Assembly: GCF_006345805.1 (NCBI RefSeq)
Contig: NC_043016.1
Coordinates: forward strand, 25,668,001-25,732,000
Direction of reading: 5' to 3'
Source of the DNA: Octopus sinensis
Taxonomy: Eukaryota
DNA length: 64,000 bases
Both the position numbers and the translations under genes were made by a program. A model generated the notes under the pieces. That model worked only from the letters and a program-made list of their open reading frames with translations, was not told the DNA's origin and made no database searches. This document shows positions 53,874 to 64,000 of the stretch, piece by piece (the stretch's first letter is position 1; each line of letters begins with the position of its first letter).

Positions 53874-54107
53874 TTTTCTTTATTACCCACAAGGGGCTAA
53901 GCACAGAGGGGACAAAACAAGGACAGACATAGGTATTAAGTCGATTACATCGACCCCAGTGGCGTAACTGGTACTTAATTTATCGACCCCGAAAGGATGA
54001 AAGGCAAAGTCGACCTCGGCGGAATTTGAACTCACAACGTAACGCAGACGAAATACCACTAAGCATTTCGCCCGGTGTGCTAACGTTTCTGCCAGCTCGC
54101 CACCTTA
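53874..54107 (-). mobile_element. SINE family B, young copy
   Basis: Near-identical to 19297-19517. Confidence 0.92.
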
Positions 54108-54427
54108 TGTATGCATAAATACAGTGTACATTTAAACACAAGAGATGACCATAATAGGACATCTGACTCACTAGAAAGAGCAGTTAAACTCCAGACCACT
54201 AATAGTTGTAGTTCTGAAAGGGAATGAGAAATAAAAACGTTTACCCTATCTTTCCTGGACTATGCATAGTTTCAGCAATCTTTTGTAAATAAAATAAAAT
54301 GATTTTCTTTTACAATTGGCATTGCCATTCTATGAATAATATATAGTCTATTGACTAATTTTTCTTCTCACTAGAGCACTGGTAGCAAAGAATTTTTCTA
54401 AAAAATTCGGTACCCTTAGATTTATTA

Positions 54428-54480
<53 letters not shown>

Positions 54481-55089
54481 TTCAGCTTATATTCTTCTGA
54501 GGTAATGATGCCTTCTGATGATTGATTAAATCTTTCACTAACTGTTTCTGTTGAAATACACTTCCTTTATTTCAATTAATTTGAAAATAATGAAGAATTG
54601 GGTAAAAATAACTTGAGTTGGTGTTTAGAGCATAAATTAACATGAAATTATGATGGAAGGTTTTGATTTGAATTACTTTGACTGTTTAGTTGCCATGTTT
54701 CTGTTGAAATACATAACTTTTGTTTCAACTAATTTCTGACTTTTAAACAGGAAGTTTGTATCATACAGCCGTATGCAGTTTTATGTGCATTGGTATTAAA
54801 AAGGTTAACCCCTTTAAAACACATGGTGTTTTGGTATGTGTAGCCAAAAAGACCAAAACGTTTTTACTATTGAGATTGAAATTGATGGGTGCATGTAGAA
54901 AGCAAAGGATAAAGTGCCTAAAACTACTTTATTAATATGCAAAACTATATATATATATATATATATTATGAAAGCTTACAAACAGTACAATACATCTATC
55001 ACAATAAGAAAATCTAAAACAGCACAATTCATGTTAGTAAATAAAATAATAAGCATAAATGTTTATGTAAAAAAACAAACAAAAAAATA

Positions 55090-55960
55090 TCTACTGAAAG
55101 ACAGTCTCTGATTGATATTACACATCAAGATCAACCATTCACAACATTTGTTTCATTGGGCCAATGGATCAGCCTCAAAATCCTTTCAGCTTGTATCACT
55201 TGGGCTGATCAATCAGCCTAGGTATCCTTTTAAGGAGGTTAAGGAAGTGATGAGCTCAGTTTTTTTTTTTTTTTCTATGCATGTGTTCACACATAAATCA
55301 ATCAGAACAGCTGCAGTTTACACTTTCAACAACAGATGGAATTCTTCAACTGAATATAATAACATAATATCATCTAAAACTATCAGTTATTACTTTTAAG
55401 TCAGGGGTTCTCAGCTGTTTTTTTTTTACCTATGGATCCCTCTGATTATTATTATTCTATTCTAGTGAACCTCTGTAGTCATTTGATGTTTAAAACTAGT
55501 TTTATAGAAACTTCCTTCAAAATTCCTATTTTGTTTTCACACTTTAACTTGTGTTGGTTGAACTATGTAAAACATTAGAGAAAGAAACCTAGCTGTTTCT
55601 TGCAATACATAGCAATGCATATATCTAAGACAAAATTTTTTCAGGGGCCCTTAAAATACTACTGTGGATTCCCAATTTACTATTTCATTCTGTGGACCCC
55701 TCAGAAATCTTATATGGACCCTGGTTGAGAACCGCTCCTTTAGGTGAATGTTTTGGACCATGGTAATTCTCATAGCATAAACTAATGCAGCCACAAAAAG
55801 TTAAGGTACCATAGTATCTCCTTGTAGTACTCCTGCAAGAATTTAAAAAATTGTCCATCTCACCTAAGAGTACTTAGGCCCTTGTTTCCTTGAGGAGAAT
55901 ATTGATGACATTTATGATTTTTTTCAAGGACACCATAAACTTCTAGAATTTGTATTAATC
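55090..55960 (-). pseudogene. decayed RTE-like RT core, split by a hAT MITE
   Basis: ILAGVLQGDTMVP*LFVAALVYAMR on one side of the MITE and DDIMLL on the other. Confidence 0.7.
55402..55737. mobile_element. hAT (Charlie/Buster-like) MITE
   Basis: TIRs CAGGGGTTCTCAGC / GTTGAGAACCGCTC; 8-bp flanks TTTTAAGT / CTTTAGGT with central TA; internal ATGGACCC repeats. Confidence 0.8.
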
Positions 55961-55989
55961 TTTTAGCATTGAGATTATTAAGGGTAAAG

Positions 55990-56287
55990 CCCATCCCACT
56001 GGAAAGTTACCCTCTGAGGCATAAGTCCAGACAGTTGTTTGTGGAAGACCAACTTACCTATATGCATACTAGCCTACTCTCTTTCCATACAACCAATGTT
56101 ATTCAAAGGAAAGGCAAAGGTCAATACAGCTTGACACCAGTGACATTGCAACTCATTTCTACACTTGAGTGACCTGAAGCAATGTAAAATAAATATCTTG
56201 CTGAAGAACACAACACATAGCCTAGTCCAGGAATCAAACTCACTACCTCATGACTGTGAGCCTGGTGCTCTAACCACTGCACCTTCC
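55990..56287 (-). mobile_element. CORE-type SINE C1, diverged
   Basis: Reverse complement of 56783-57090. Confidence 0.8.
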
Positions 56288-56782
56288 TGTCAAATATAAT
56301 GCTTATTTATTCACACTGTTTTGAGTTGATCATACATTATCTTGTAGCTTTGAGATTTTGATGATGCATTAGGCATGACTAGGTCAGTTTAAACACAAAA
56401 TAGGCAGAACATTTGGCCCTGATGTGGCCTATTCAAATGCTAAAGGGTTGAATTTTTTGTGATGAATCATGTTGAAGTCTGTTTTTAAAAAGTTTTTTTT
56501 TTTCTCAAGGTCTCTTGTTCTCTTAACAAGCTTCATAAAGAAAGTATGTATATTGTAGTGATTGATTTACCTGGAATTTATGTTGGTTTTCTTTTTTATT
56601 TTCATCTGAGTATTGGTTCTAAGAGAGGTCTGATTCTTTGCTGAAGCATCTTGTAAATTTTTGCAGTTAGCAATTGTATTGGGGAAATAACTTGTGTACA
56701 AATTGATTTTTTTTTAACCCTTTTGACACTAGCCTGCTTAAAACAGCTCTTGTTTCTCATACAAAATCTTCTTGTTTTATAA

Positions 56783-57118
56783 GTGAAGGCACATGGCTCA
56801 GTGGTTAGAGCGTCGAGCTTACAATTGTGAGGTTGTGAGCTCGAATCCCGGATCGGGCTGCGTGTTGTGTTCTTGAGCAAAACACTTTATTTCATGTTGC
56901 TCCAATTCACTCAGCTGTAGAAATGAGTTGCAACATCACAGGTGCCAAGCTGTATCGGCCTTTGCCTTTCCCTTGGATAACATCAGTGGCTTGGAGAGGG
57001 GAGGCTGGTATGCATGGGCGACTGCTGGTCTTCCATAAACAACCTTGCCCAGACATGTGCCTTGGAGGGTAACTTTCTAGGTGCAATCTCATGGTCAGTC
57101 ATGACCAAAGGGGGTCTC
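56783..57118 (+). mobile_element. CORE-type SINE C1, full length (OR-like)
   Basis: A-box TGGCTCAGTGG, B-box-like GCTCGAATCCC, CORE-like GTGTTCTTGAGCAAAACACTT...CTCAGCTGTAGAAATGAG. Confidence 0.9.
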
Positions 57119-58047
57119 AGCAGTATATAGTGATCTAAATTAAAATCTTCCATCGAAATTTCATGATAATTTATGTTCTAAACATCAACTTCATAATGAC
57201 AATGTTATTTTACTAAAATCTTCATTATTTTCAAAATTAATTGAAACAGTAAGAGTGCAGTTTAACAGAAAAGGGATAATCCCAATTTATTTTTTGTGTT
57301 TGTTGCTGGAGACCACTTGTAAAGCAAAAACTCACAAAGCAGAGCAATGATTTCCCATGGTACTCTGTTGCTGTGTAGACACTTCAGAACCAGTGTTGCC
57401 ACACACACACACACACACAAAATGGTTGTTTAACCTTTTTATATTTATTATAAAATAAAACTTGTGAAACTGAGGTCTCCTAAAGCAGGTCCTCATAAAG
57501 TGAGGTATTATTGTATTTAATTTTGTTGAAAGAGTGTTAGTAAAAGAAAGGGATCCATAGTTATGGTAAGAATCTCAGAATGGTAATTTGGTTATTAATA
57601 GAAATGTGAAGGGGATGAGAGAAAATGATTAAAAATAGGAAGAAAAGAAAATACTTCAAGAGTTCAAGGAGTGGCAGACTGGAAGAATTATTTGGTTGAA
57701 GTATTTCTTACTTGAAGGTCAATTAGGGTCATTTAGTAGTGTATGGTGGTCAGTGAAAGTGGAATTTTTTTTTTTCTTTTTGTACATTCAAAAAAAGAGT
57801 GAGTATGTGAGTTGACAGAAATTTCTGTGATGGGGTTTATGTCAAGAGTAAAGAAGGTGGAGTGCATAGGATCAGTGTTGATGGTGGTGTATAGTCATGG
57901 CTTCATACACATGAACTATGTTAAGATTTCAGCCATGCAAACACACACTGGCACATTAACTTTATGGACACTGATGGTTTGGAATTTCTTATAATCCACA
58001 CTAATTTAAGAGCAGGAACTACAAATTCTCACATCTGCCAGACTTGC

Positions 58048-58445
58048 TCTTTTACTTGTTTCAGTCATCTGACTGTGGCCATACTGCAGCACCACCTTTA
58101 GTCGAGCAAATCAACCCCACAACTTATTCTTTGTAAGCCTAGTACTTATTCTATTGGTGTCTTTTGCCGAACCGCTAAGTCACAGGGACCTAAACACACC
58201 AGCATCGGTTGTCAAGAGATGTTGCGGGGACAAACACAGACACACAAACATACACACACACACACATATATATATATACATATATACGACGTGCTTCTTT
58301 CAGTTTCCGTCTACCAAATCCACTCACAAGGCTTTGGTCGGCCTGAGGCTATAGTAGAAGACACTTGCCCAAGGTGCCACGCAGTGGGACTGAACCCGGA
58401 ACCATGTGGTTCGTAAGCAAACTATTTACCACACAGCCACTCCTA
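58048..58445 (-). mobile_element. SINE family A, full length
   Basis: Reverse complement of 53105-53512. Confidence 0.92.
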
Positions 58446-58821
58446 ACAGAGTTAATACTTTGCACATTACAGTATATCAATTTATTGGATGTAGCTCTGC
58501 ATCATTGACCAGTAGAAAGGATGTCCTCTTGGGGTTAAAAAATCGCAGTAGAGTCCATTTGAATGGACAGCAATGTTGAAGTGGCCATGAATATTACTTG
58601 TCAGTATATTAATACTATAGATTAAACTTCTATCATTTATACTAATGGACAAGTACAGCATCTTTAATATTCTGAGTTCAAATTTTGCTAAAGGCAACAT
58701 TGCCTTTCATCCCTTTCGGGGTTGATAAAATATAAATCTGTTGAGCCTTGGAGTTGATGTAATTGGCTTTCTCTTCGCTGAAATTGCTGGTCTTGTGCCG
58801 AAATTTGAAGCCAATATTTGT

Positions 58822-59048
58822 TTAATTCTTTAACATTCAAACCAGCTGTATTCAGCCCAAATATTCTATGAGTTTTATGTTGAAACCAACCAGATCAAGC
58901 CTCTCCCACCTACCCTACAATGTTATTTTAAAAGTAAACAACCATATTATTGAAATCCCAAAGTTATGAGATACACATGATTAATTCAAAGCAGTATGAA
59001 TGAGTAAACATTGCATTTGGCTGAGCAATCTGAATGTTAAAGGGTTAA
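58822..59048 (-). mobile_element. MITE M2, complete
   Basis: TTAA|TTCTTTAACATT ... AATGTTAAAGGG|TTAA. Confidence 0.75.
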
Positions 59049-59181
59049 TTTAGTGTGTATCTACCCCTAGTTCAGAAAAAATCAGGATTAGGATTAGGTT
59101 TTGAAAGCAAAGGTTGAAGAAAATTGATCCTGTACCTGTACTCACAGTTAAGAAATTATGTGTTTGTATGGAGACACGGAG

Positions 59182-59440
59182 TGGAGGTGCATGGCTTAGT
59201 GGTTAGGGTGTCAGCATCATGAGCGTAAGATGGTGGTTTCGATTCCTGGACCGGGCGACGCGCTGTGTTCTTGAGCAAAACACTTTATTTCATGTTGCTC
59301 CAGTCCACTCAGCTGGCAAAAATGAGTAACGCTGCGATGGACTGACGTCCCGTCCAGCTGGGGAACACATACGCCATAGAAACCGGGAAACTGGACCCAT
59401 GAGCCTGGCTAGGTTTTAAAAGGACGCATTTATTTATTAT
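59182..59440 (+). mobile_element. CORE-type SINE C2, full length
   Basis: A/B boxes, CORE block, CTGCGATGGACTGACGTCCCGTCCAG tail; TSD TATGGAGA(C/T)ACGGAG at 59167-59181 and 59441-59455. Confidence 0.92.
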
Positions 59441-59519
59441 TATGGAGATACGGAGGCAAACAGACTAACACATAATGGTACATATGCATAGATGTAAATA
59501 TACATAATTGCTTGTGTCA

Positions 59520-59830
59520 TAATCATCACCATTTAGCTTCTACTTTCCATACTGGCATGGGTCAAACAGTTTCAGTTTGATTTGGCATGGCTGAATGCCC
59601 TTCCTAACATCAACTACTCCAAGAGTGTAATCGGTGCTTTTAACTTACCACTGGCATCAGCCAGTACTATGATTTCACTTGGCTTAATGAGTCTCCTCAA
59701 GCACAGCATATCACCAAAGGTCTCAATCACTTGTCATCACTTCCATGAGACTAACGTTTGAAGATCACACTTCACCACTTCATCCAATATCTTCCTGGAT
59801 CTACCACTTCTACACATTCCCTCCACAGAG
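59520..59830 (-). mobile_element. decayed RTE 3' end
   Basis: Minus strand VEGMCRSGRSRKILDEVVKCDL plus tail. Confidence 0.8.
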
Positions 59831-60175
59831 TTCAGCACTACAAGCGCGCATGTGTAGGTATAGACATGTGCGCTTACGCGAATACTATGAACTTTTTTAC
59901 TCCCTCCCCTCACCTAGCGGTCATTCAAATAGCTCTTTTATCTTAATAACGGTCAATCACACAGTAATTTCCCTTTGTTTAATGGTCATTTTCATAGCAT
60001 TTTTTCCAATTGCCAGATAACTGAAGAGATGGCGGCATGGGTTTCCACCTCGGCATCCAAAACTTATGGCTACCAAATAATTGTCATATATTATATTTAC
60101 AGATAAATTCCTCTATTTACATAATATCGAGGTCTCTTTCATTCTTTTCTTGTCTTACCATTTCTATCAATATAT
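59831..60175 (+). mobile_element. Penelope-like family P1 copy with a damaged hammerhead (60016-60067)
   Basis: GATAA CTGAAGA GATG...CATC C AAAA; downstream sequence matches 4345-4450 in reverse. Confidence 0.6.
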
Positions 60176-60801
60176 TTAAATATATATATTTTTAGGAAGT
60201 TTATTGTTACACCTGGTTGGAGAGTGACCATTGGTTTTGCACCTATAAAGCTGTATAAGTGACTTGTAGGCTAAACACTTTATAGGTGTGTACCAATGGT
60301 CACTCTCTGACTGATCACAGCAATAACCTTCCTAAAACTATATATTACTGCTCTAAAGTTTTAGAATGTGCTTTTTTTTTTTTTTTTTTGGATATACAAA
60401 CTACTGATGATTATAAACACACACACACACACTCACTTATTTATAAACACACACACACACACATACACATGCACATGTATGAGTGCTTCCAATCAGTCTA
60501 TTAGTTATACTTGTGCACAATTATAACTCTATGTTGAATACATAGTAATATTATATAAAACGATTTGTTCATAATCTTATAGCATGAACCACACTTGTTT
60601 GGGCAAAATAAAGGAAGGTTCCACTAACCATCATTATTAGAGTAGAAGATATATTTCAGAGACTGAATTGTGTCAATTTATGAATGGTTTTGGCAGAGCT
60701 GGAGGGTTAGGTAAGTAGTAAGTGGAAGGTGTTGAAGTGAAGGAGCTAAGTAGGAAGCAAGCTAGTGAGAGAGAAGGGGAGAAAAAGATAGACAGAGAGG
60801 G

Positions 60802-60833
<32 letters not shown>

Positions 60834-61323
60834 CAAAATAGATAAAGGGAGAAAGAAGCTTATAAGAGAGTAAGATGTATGTCTGGAGTGAAGTTGAGAA
60901 AGAGTGGGAGGTGTGGTAGGAGTGTCATTGATAGCAAGGCTGGAGGACAGGGAGGAAAGACTATGATAAGGGAGAGAGAGGTGCTGGTGGTGGTGAGGAA
61001 TAAAGGGAGGTGATTTGGTAAAGTTGATGGATATGTGAAAGTGTATGTGTTGTGTTGTGTAGTGGGTAGAAGGTGGGGGTGTAAGCTTGTGAGAGAAAAG
61101 ATGTTTGGGGGTACAAGAGACCAGTATTTTGATACAAATGTAAACACCAATGATAATAATAGTAACAGGTGAAAAACAGAGGTTAGGATGATGACCTTTA
61201 GAAATGGTGTGTGTGTAAACACACATATAGTAAGTAGTATAGGTCCTAATAAAGTTGAAAATTGGTGTATTTCCAATGCAGTTATTAACACTATATATAT
61301 AAATTATATACACACACACACAT

Positions 61324-61363
<40 letters not shown>

Positions 61364-61770
61364 AATGTCAAGCAGTGAGACAGAACTGGAGACCTCAGTC
61401 ACATTCTTATCCCCCATTTCATTTCTGTTTCACTAACTGAGACTGACCAATGCCTTGTGGGTGAAATAATAAGTTGACAAAACTAAAAGATGATTCGTCC
61501 TTTTAAGCGTTTTAGTTCACATTTCATGTCCATGAAAACTTTTATATATATATATATAATTCCAAGAAAGTTAGGGGTTGTGGGTCCAACCTACTAAGGA
61601 ATAATATCTATCCAATATACTGTTGGTATAATTTAATATTTAGGATAAATGACATGTATGTATGTTATTATAATTATCATTTTAATAAATAAATAAGTTA
61701 ACATTTTACTGTCCTAATGTTGATGAATCAACTATTGTGCTTCTCCATTTTCTTATTTGCAATATATATA

Positions 61771-62195
61771 CTCTTTTACTTGTTTCAGTCATTTGACTGC
61801 GGCCATGCTGGAGCACCACCTTTCATCGTGCAACTCGACCCCGGGACTTATTCTTTTGTAAGCCCAGCACTTATTCTATCGGTCTCTTTTGCCGAACCGC
61901 TAAGTAACGGGGACATAAACACACCAGCATCGGTTGTCTAGCAATGCTAGGGTGACAAACACAGAAACACAAACACACACACGCATATATATATATATAT
62001 ATATATTATATACATATATACGACGGGCTTCTTTCAGTTTCCGTCTACCAAATCCACTCACAAGGCTTTGGTCGGCCCAAGGCTATAGTAGAAGACACTT
62101 GCCCAAGGTGCCACGCAGTGGGACTGAACCCGGAACCATGTGGTTGGTAAACAAGCTACTTACCACACACCACACAGCCACTCCTGCGCCTATAT
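61771..62195 (-). mobile_element. SINE family A, full length, young
   Basis: CpGs largely intact. Confidence 0.92.
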
Positions 62196-62622
62196 ATAAA
62201 CTACACTTATTTTTCCTGAAGAGATTTAACAATATACAGATTATTGCATCTTTTTAAGTTATAATTATTCATTATTCTCAAATATTGCTATATTGAAACA
62301 TACATATGTATGTGGCATATCTTTTTGCGGGATGGGTAATATTATTTGGGTTATTTTATTAGTTGAGGCGGTTCCTTTTATACTCTTATAGGTGTATTTT
62401 TTCGTCTTTTCCTTTGCATTACATTTCCAATTGTAATACAAACAAAACAAATCAAGCATCTTTTGAATTATTCTTCTCCATTTTCTTTTATTGACTTTAA
62501 TTTTATGATTTCTTTATACACATATATATTGATGATCTTCCTATCAATATATTTGGTAAAACAGTGGCATAGGGATTGTTTTTAACAATCCCTTACATGG
62601 ATATTGCTTTATCAAATTCTGA

Positions 62623-63045
62623 TTGTATGTATATATATATATATATTATATATATATATATTGTATGTATATATATTGTATGTATATATATTGTATGTAT
62701 ATATATTGTATGTATATATATGTATGTGTATATATTGTATGTGTATATATGTATATATATATTGTATGTATATATATTGTATGTGTATATATGTATATAT
62801 ATATATATTGTATGTATATATATATATATGTATATATATATATTGTATGTGTATATATGTATATATATATGTATTGTATGTGTATATATGTATATATATA
62901 TGTATTGTATGTGTATATATGTATATATATATATATATTGTATGTGTATATATGTATATATATATATGTATTGTATGTGTATATATGTATATATATATGT
63001 ATTGTATGTGTATATATGTATATATATATATTGTATGTATATATG
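62623..63045. repeat. compound (TA)/(TG) minisatellite
   Basis: Recurrent unit TATTGTATG(TG)TATATA(TGTATATATA..) of about 15-33 bp. Confidence 0.95.
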
Positions 63046-63046
63046 T

Positions 63047-63200
63047 CAGTGGCTGTGTGGTAAGTAGCTTGCTTACTAAGCACTTGGTTCCAGGTTCAGT
63101 CCCACTGCGTGGCACCTTGGGCAAGTATCTTCTACTATAGCCTCGGGCCGAGCAAAACCTTGTGAGTGGATTTGGTAGGCAGAAACTGAAAGAAGCCCAT
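63047..63200 (+). mobile_element. SINE A 5' half
   Basis: Head through GAAAGAAGCCC, then the foldback begins. Confidence 0.9.
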
Positions 63201-63282
63201 CAGCATGTGTATATATAAAAATTAACAGAATGAGATAAAAATCCAAGGCCCTGAAAGATTTTAGAACATTTATAAACAGAAG

Positions 63283-63330
63283 GTCTTACAACTGTTTCCA
63301 GGATATTTTATATATTCCTTCATCGGAGAC
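63283..63330 (-). ncRNA. minimal hammerhead motif, left-arm copy
   Basis: GUCU CCGAUGA A GGAAUAU-AUAAA-AUAUCCU G GAAA CAGUUG UA AGAC. Confidence 0.55.
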
Positions 63331-63368
63331 AGTGTGAGAAAATGGTTATGCAATAGTTTTCTCACACT

Positions 63369-63416
63369 GTCTCCGATGAAGGGATATATAAAATATCCTA
63401 GAAACAGCTGTAAGAC
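63369..63416 (+). ncRNA. minimal hammerhead motif (U4C), right-arm copy
   Basis: GUCU CCGAUGA A GGGAUAU-AUAAA-AUAUCCU A GAAA CAGCUG UA AGAC; palindromic stem III ACAGCUGU, GUA triplet. Confidence 0.6.
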
Positions 63417-63554
63417 CTATTTATAAATGTTCTAAAATCTTTCACAGCCTTGGATTTTTTATCTCATTCTGAAAATTTTTATATATTTTATAAAATTTGA
63501 TTTAATCCTAAATCTAATTTTTCCCTGTAAGTTTGGATATATTATATATCACTG

Positions 63555-63780
63555 TGTTGCTATCACATGTTGCTACACATCGCTTCGCATTGTTTTAGCC
63601 TTCAAATGAAGCCACCCCACGAGCAAGCCAACAGAAGAAAGAGTGAGAGAAAGTTGTGGTGAAAAAGTACAGCAGGGATCGCCACCATCCCCTGCTGGAA
63701 CCTCGTAGAACTTTGGGTGTTTTCACTCAATAAACACTCCCAACACTCGGTCTGGGAATCGAAACCACAATCCTATGACC
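63555..63780 (-). mobile_element. 5'-truncated tRNA-headed SINE of another family
   Basis: Minus strand GGTTTCGATTCCCAGACCG B-box followed by a CORE-like GTGTTTATTGAGTGAAAAACACC and an unrelated tail. Confidence 0.6.
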
Positions 63781-63788
63781 AATCTATT

Positions 63789-63829
<41 letters not shown>

Positions 63830-64000
63830 TAGGGTGTGGTGAATAAACTGTTGTCTAAATTATGCAAAAATGAAAATAACACTAACATCTCATTTTACCA
63901 GATTTATGTATCAAAATTACATAAAAATGTTTTGAAATACTAATGAGTAAATTTATTCAATAAAATCGCAACTGTCTTCCACCACAGCTGCCAAACAACT
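63830..64000 (-). mobile_element. Tc1/mariner-family element end
   Basis: TAGGGTGT (cf. CAGGGTGT) terminus; minus strand SCLAAVVEDSCDFIE* resembles the RLEAVVEAxGxFIE* transposase C-terminus; runs off the window. Confidence 0.6.

Follow-up and report, generated by a model that had tools for sequence, protein, structure and literature searches.

How does a short inverted repeat come to hold a hammerhead ribozyme motif on each strand, and does such a hairpin work as a ribozyme switch or reflect the way in which it was made? The question is raised by a foldback near the end of the window, i.e., the whole 64-kb stretch of DNA analysed here. The foldback very probably consists of two 5'-truncated ends of a Penelope-like element (PLE) with Hydra-type motifs, worn and set head to head, likely left by a single insertion, and the hammerhead motifs predicted to be trapped in it are likely a by-product. 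The repeat family, its link to an ORF with reverse transcriptase-like (RT-like) and GIY-YIG regions, the recurrence of the head-to-head layout and the drift of both arms are established below. The hairpin itself is real but ordinary, two clipped Penelope ends set head to head in a known layout: head-to-head pseudo-LTRs with one tail, opposite-strand hammerhead pairs and a Hydra family with hammerheads on both strands are already in print (PMC3846280, PMC8557442, PMC4209133). Less ordinary are the U4C core of the lineage and the pair statistics, which bear on the integration mechanism.

The hairpin and its hammerhead motifs

Local alignment places the inverted arms at 63211-63342 and 63357-63486, 91% identical over 133 columns with 14 nt between them, and the predicted folding energy of the hairpin RNA is -176 kcal/mol for the plus strand and -186 kcal/mol for the minus strand. 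The features of the locus are as follows.

63048..63201, plus strand: unrelated SINE-like repeat abutting the left arm, with inverted copies at 58288-58441 and 62022-62169 (91-92%)
63200..63210, minus strand: 11-nt stub of the element tail, which leads into the ORF in longer copies
about 63200..63358, minus strand: left arm, the pseudo-LTR (3' end) of a Hydra-type Penelope-like element, truncated at its 5' side, 92% identical to about 496-662 of the working family reference
63280..63282, minus strand: 3 nt that the left arm has and the right arm lacks, the site of a deletion that recurs in the family, directly 3' of hammerhead stem I
63283..63330, minus strand: minimal type-I hammerhead (motif scan), core CCGAUGA, with damaged stem III palindrome CAGUUG and predicted cut at 63287/63286
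63357..63358, no strand: head-to-head junction with 2-nt TT microhomology (junction analysis and sequence)
63357..63486, plus strand: right arm, the 3' end of the same element, truncated at its 5' side and tail-less, 94% identical to 517-648 of the working reference
63369..63416, plus strand: minimal type-I hammerhead (motif scan), core CCGAUGA, with loop-less palindromic stem III ACAGCUGU and predicted cut at 63412/63413

The arms of about 130 bp given in the preliminary description are thus recovered, while its 14-nt spacer dissolves into the left arm, being element sequence rather than separate DNA. The closest other genomic copies are 89-94% identical to the left arm and up to 95% identical to the right arm, which terminates in TA-rich sequence. 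The two arms mismatch at 12 of the 133 columns, family-level variants among them, and disagree both at the 3-nt deletion and at an AA/TT subfamily marker, where the window pair is one of 2 discordant pairs in 27; strict copying from one RNA would not give this AA/TT mismatch, which calls for a second template or conversion. The likely target of the insertion was the TA-rich 3' end of the SINE-like repeat, other copies of which continue into TA repeats near 63198.

A short AT-rich inverted repeat flanked by TA could also be a foldback DNA transposon (MITE) or an assembly artefact, and although both arms are covered by contigs of four public runs, none of the 32 pieces listed spans the centre. 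An artefact is nevertheless unlikely, since the arms carry the 12 mismatches and the layout recurs elsewhere with other junctions; as for a MITE, fixed termini are not found, junction position and arm length varying at every site, and the arms are the 3' end of an element with RT-like and GIY-YIG regions. Both readings are extremely improbable.

A hammerhead motif reading outward in each arm, as first proposed, was found by scanning the window for the motif on both strands, a search that returned these two motifs and one weak unrelated match. The plus-strand copy consists of GTCT (63369-72), CCGATGA (63373-79), a 21-nt stem II, GAAA (63401-04), CAGCTG, TA and AGAC; in the minus-strand copy the core starts at 63326 and stem III reads CAGTTG. 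The core boxes, stems I and II and palindromic stem III are those of a minimal type-I hammerhead, except that the canonical U at core position 4 is replaced by C (U4C). Folding predicts a self-dimer of -11.7 kcal/mol for the plus copy through ACAGCUGU, and of only -4.0 kcal/mol for the minus copy with its damaged stem III. No hammerhead family is among the 15 Rfam matches listed for 54000-64000 at E<=1, which fits the non-canonical C4 and the loop-less stem III; a MIR400 match on the hairpin was dismissed as a generic long-hairpin match far below cut-off.

The commonest cores of the family include CCGATGA (86 arms), CTGATGA (21) and CCAATGA (16), and a sister family with about 53% protein identity has the same three (13, 5 and 4, respectively), the T and A forms fitting a pattern of CpG decay. 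More distant families have U at position 4, and related families keep the hammerhead frame with different stem II sequences. Among family arms the GAAA box shows 1.1% substitution vs 5.8% in the 3' flank, which is not counted as selection since retrieval favours conserved words.

The motifs resemble the minimal PLE hammerheads of Cervera and de la Pena 2014 (PMC4209133) in having a 4-bp stem I, a stem II of roughly 7 bp plus one additional nucleotide on the 5' side, and a palindromic stem III; that paper also reports hammerhead pairs about 100-700 bp apart on opposite strands, and the variant it describes is U3-A8 rather than C4. Likewise, the Hydra-clade hammerheads in the part of the supplementary table of PMC8557442 consulted here all have U4, in contrast with the C4 of the window family, whose hammerhead also differs from that of Hydra-1_Obim. 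Elsewhere, a C4 hammerhead frame (CCGAAGA) with a different stem set lies on the minus strand of locus L116 near position 594, and C4 may thus occur in an unrelated family. Lunse et al. are said to have described small PLE hammerhead variants, which may already include C4 forms. A further locus, L120, holds three identical hammerheads with core CTGACGA at 1723, 2182 and 2641, a retrozyme-like tandem with a 459-nt period (for background on retrozymes see bioRxiv 10.64898/2026.07.22.740005; further background in PMC6765202).

The element family and its clade

A search of the 2.7-Gb genome with the arm gave 3777 first-look candidates, the top copies being 92-95% identical, and among the first 30 loci 17, which make up 16 distinct sites with the window counted, have a partner on the opposite strand. 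In longer copies (L101, L104, L109, L114 and others) a sense-strand arm, 80-88% identical to the window arm, lies downstream of an ORF, with its hammerhead about 1 kb past the nuclease domain, so that the arm is both multi-copy and tied to a PLE, as anticipated. The tail, about 150 nt following the arm, leads into the ORF start in the related copies L110 and L120, which is the permuted layout of a pseudo-LTR.

The GIY-YIG region of the ORF matches PF01541 at the curated cut-off. Upstream, an RT-like ORF with a YRDD motif is present in L101, L112 and L119, and the Atlas neighbours include clusters with RVT_1, which in three of them is carried by 16-48% of members; no Pfam RT match was obtained for L119 or L101. 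The family thus shows the features of EN+ Penelope-like elements, i.e., RT followed by a C-terminal GIY-YIG in one ORF, together with a hammerhead-bearing pseudo-LTR, an inverted 5'-truncated copy and an optional tail, and all copies seen of the window's family are broken. Of 76 tail-less ends, 49 lie in TA repeats, and TA or TC repeats hold 38 of 70 tail ends, a setting that hides target-site duplications.

Several motifs are shared with the Hydra clade of C-terminal EN+ Penelope-like elements, which includes Penelope-13_HM and Hydra-1_Obim (Craig et al. 2021, PMC8557442): RWK (RMRWKAFF in L038 and the related copy L110), DKT (FSDKT in L119 and L110) and, in the translations of L114, L104, L102 and L058, a CxCX5C linker and a GIY-YIG domain with no internal CCHH cysteines and with CxxC and CxH beside E and N. 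Insertion into (TA)n and a sense hammerhead near the 3' end are also as in that clade (PMC8557442), to which the family is assigned on the match of its sequence motifs and (TA)n targets; Neptune/Nematis membership, the first candidate, was dropped given the Hydra motifs. An inverted 5'-truncated copy with a hammerhead on each strand is known from Penelope-13_HM (PMC8557442). The window family departs from the clade in its tail of about 150 nt, as opposed to the usual 30-40 (PMC8557442), in the stretch of about 1 kb between ORF and hammerhead and in an Asn-rich linker within the ORF. A non-LTR retrozyme, made of tandem hammerhead units, was rejected on finding 0 tandem pairs among 38.

Some other copies have features of their own. 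The Asn-rich stretch lies between the RT thumb and the Zn-finger linker (L104:5047-6084, L114:4992-6014, L118:4465-5865) and is similar to the N-rich inserts described in rotifer Penelopes (PMC3846280). A 919-aa open frame in L111 (3113-5869) holds two apparent nuclease regions, the end of another PLE type, with cysteines in its GIY-YIG-like motif, running in frame into a Hydra-type RT and GIY-YIG, and is probably a nested insertion. Three same-strand tail-only copies of about 137 nt without a hammerhead, 97-99% identical to the reference, lie together at G000:C9:43593097-43593825 (L217/L227/L239). Finally, L033, L039, L044, L045, L046 and L052 hold one truncated element and are 97-99% alike including their flanks, representing a segmental duplication or redundant contigs.

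The origin of the inverted pairs

A single hairpin carries little weight, and it is the family that provides a large natural sample of how inverted PLE ends form, an origin called undefined in PMC8557442. The 166 unique hammerhead arms obtained from 210 loci represent the few percent of the family that match best. Among them, 37 pairs stand head to head, one is tail-to-tail and none is tandem, which bears out the earlier reading of an inverted pseudo-LTR. Analysis was based on 31 close pairs, leaving out 6 pairs more than 700 nt apart. In 28 of the 31 a long tail is present on exactly one arm, in none on both and in 3 on neither, the window pair, with its 11-nt stub, being one of these 3 below the tail threshold. 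Exactly one tail is also found in 7 of 8 pairs of the sister family and in 14 of 15 pairs of a young distant family, for which tail status comes from a separate analysis because the other reference ended in flank DNA. One sister-family pair, L265, is at odds with this pattern in having two long 3' ends.

The 5' ends lie within 25 nt of each other in 22/31 pairs vs 6.5 in shuffles, subfamily markers are concordant between arms in 217 of 244 calls (0.69 when shuffled), and 21 rare variants are common to both arms against 3.3 in shuffles, 8 of the 21 coming from two pairs. In the young family, arms are 0-4 differences apart and marker calls agree in 36/36. One tail per pair, matched 5' ends and shared markers and variants together indicate that the two arms stem from one event and normally from one source; the idea that they usually derive from unrelated family members is contradicted by the shared markers and rare variants.

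Within this explanation, the event probably consisted of two priming events on element RNA from two start sites. The element protein would cut both strands of a TA-rich target, and each target end would prime reverse transcription on the element RNA, one start site lying inside the tail and the other before it; both cDNA copies would stop near the same place, and their ends would be joined by microhomology. In L1 twin priming, too, both target ends prime on the element RNA, giving an inverted junction with microhomology, the difference being that the L1 segments barely overlap, whereas pairs of the window family usually duplicate the whole 3' end. This two-start-site model is the simplest given the pair statistics and the in vitro behaviour of the Poseidon element PAc (Frangieh et al. 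2024, PMC11167929), in which two RT start sites bound the tail and both target strands are cut and extended. PAc also has AT-rich targets and a predicted dimer, i.e., the ingredients of the model, although it belongs to a different clade and the main text does not present a test of inverted pair formation.

The pairs could instead have arisen by fold-back, one copy having folded at the TT overlap and been copied back, or having self-primed on an antisense template; we regard this as possible though not probable. It accepts the same element and the same neutral status and competes with the two-start-site step alone. The inverted pseudo-LTRs of EN+ Penelopes (Arkhipova et al. 2013, PMC3846280; PMC8557442) share with the window family the head-to-head layout, a tail at one end and a short overlap or palindrome at the junction, and in rotifer Penelopes the junction palindromes were taken as self-priming on an antisense template (PMC3846280), as opposed to the two priming events towards which the pair statistics lean here. 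Near-symmetric junctions (the 22/31 pairs within 25 nt), microhomology, short templated insertions at several pair junctions, the markers and rare variants common to both arms and the window's 14-nt loop, part of the tail-side arm, are all as fold-back would have them. Nevertheless, the matched 5' ends, shared variants and templated insertions are compatible with either model.

What separates the two is arm length and identity, since fold-back of a tail-bearing copy should never give a shorter tail arm and should give arms identical at birth. In contrast, among 28 pairs the tail-bearing arm is the shorter of the two in 13 and the longer in 9, the arms being equal in 6, and in 6 further cases a tail-less arm meets an inverted piece that is mostly or only tail (2 show the reverse). 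Shorter tail arms also occur in young pairs with arms less than 1% different, by 109 nt in L297 and by more than 460 nt in L302, although central deletions after insertion could also shorten a tail arm. The 3-nt deletion is discordant in both directions, and the start sites and two-strand extension seen in vitro (PMC11167929) likewise speak against fold-back. The window pair itself counts against the two-site step, its tail arm being the longer one and carrying the TT overlap, as fold-back predicts.

The 3-nt deletion, just after hammerhead stem I, is present in 54 of 159 arms and in all three subfamilies (five control sites with the same type of repeat give 1 in 591), and shows no link to flanking markers at p<0.001. 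Of 28 pairs that could be scored (25 together and 3 from another analysis), 11 carry it on one arm only, 7 one way and 4 the other, which fits independence of the arms (p=0.35). It may also reflect a DNA hot spot acting after insertion: in one of the three subfamilies, divergence is slightly higher among arms with the deletion (0.049 vs 0.040, p=0.012), a hint of an age effect. A slip beside stem I as a general feature was discarded, the equivalent hot spot being absent in both other families examined. Self-cutting by the element nuclease with messy repair was also set aside, nearby indels being no commoner than elsewhere (0.07-0.08 per arm per 20 nt near the site vs 0.04-0.26), although a single dominant repair product may still be compatible with these counts.

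The pairs may, on a tentative and rather doubtful reading, be a fossil record of a dimeric enzyme that primes both target strands on one RNA from two fixed starts, the trailing RT displacing the first cDNA; each pass would slip 3 nt independently at the foot of stem I, a sign of the ribozyme being folded on the template while reverse transcription is under way, and the lineage would have reached thousands of copies with a U4C, probably weakened, core. The literature consulted, mostly open-access, yielded no test on genomic data of whether PLE inverted pairs arise by two-site priming. One tail per pair, matched 5' ends and an arm-discordant marker make two start sites and fold-back distinguishable in the existing in vitro system, and a lineage amplified with a U4C core offers a probe of the level of hammerhead activity that such elements need. 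The young PLE family mentioned above (L291-L320; 141 first-look candidates, 93-97% identical to the query) has a canonical core, a tail of about 29 nt and an internal inverted repeat; its 15 head-to-head pairs are near-identical, and it is the best material for mechanism work.

Predicted masking of the hammerhead motifs

Read-through transcription of either strand would yield the antisense arm before the ribozyme, and the ribozyme would be zipped up on emerging. The ribozyme fold lies 64 and 71 kcal/mol above the hairpin by folding, and from this gap and the order of transcription masking is predicted; the suggestion that the ribozyme is locked in long dsRNA is thus borne out at the level of folding prediction. 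In an active element, the hammerhead would likely work as a dimer via its palindromic stem III.

A stronger version, in which the lock is regulated or modulated by editing, is not supported. A ribozyme switch kept by the host, with ADAR editing or unwinding freeing a hammerhead that then cuts the host transcript, might draw on the plus-strand motif, which has all family core positions and an intact stem III palindrome, and a 130-bp duplex, if transcribed, would be a good ADAR substrate. Against this, the energy gap is large, and the motif needs a second free copy to form a dimer; the layout is that of a routine insertion, both arms have drifted 6-8% from the family reference, the minus-strand stem III is damaged and two intact cores are kept in only 9 of 25 scorable close pairs. 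Moreover, U4C, a natural viroid variant, has much reduced activity in vitro (PMC3088659), and minimal PLE hammerheads show no activity as monomers and little as dimers (PMC4209133). The sense strand of the family copies shows no A-to-G excess (A>G 233 vs T>C 308, p=0.36), so that edited RNA has left no record in the DNA, a result that concerns the genomic copies and not present-day transcripts. A host-kept switch is therefore highly unlikely, and the predicted masking of the hammerheads is most likely a by-product rather than a designed switch.

Inverted repeats in other animals are ADAR substrates, and hairpins of this kind, if transcribed, would add to the pool. The SINE-like copy beside the hairpin, which is inverted relative to the two others 0.9 and 4.6 kb away, could form a second dsRNA, and a direct repeat of about 390 bp is found at 58047-58435 and 61771-62169.
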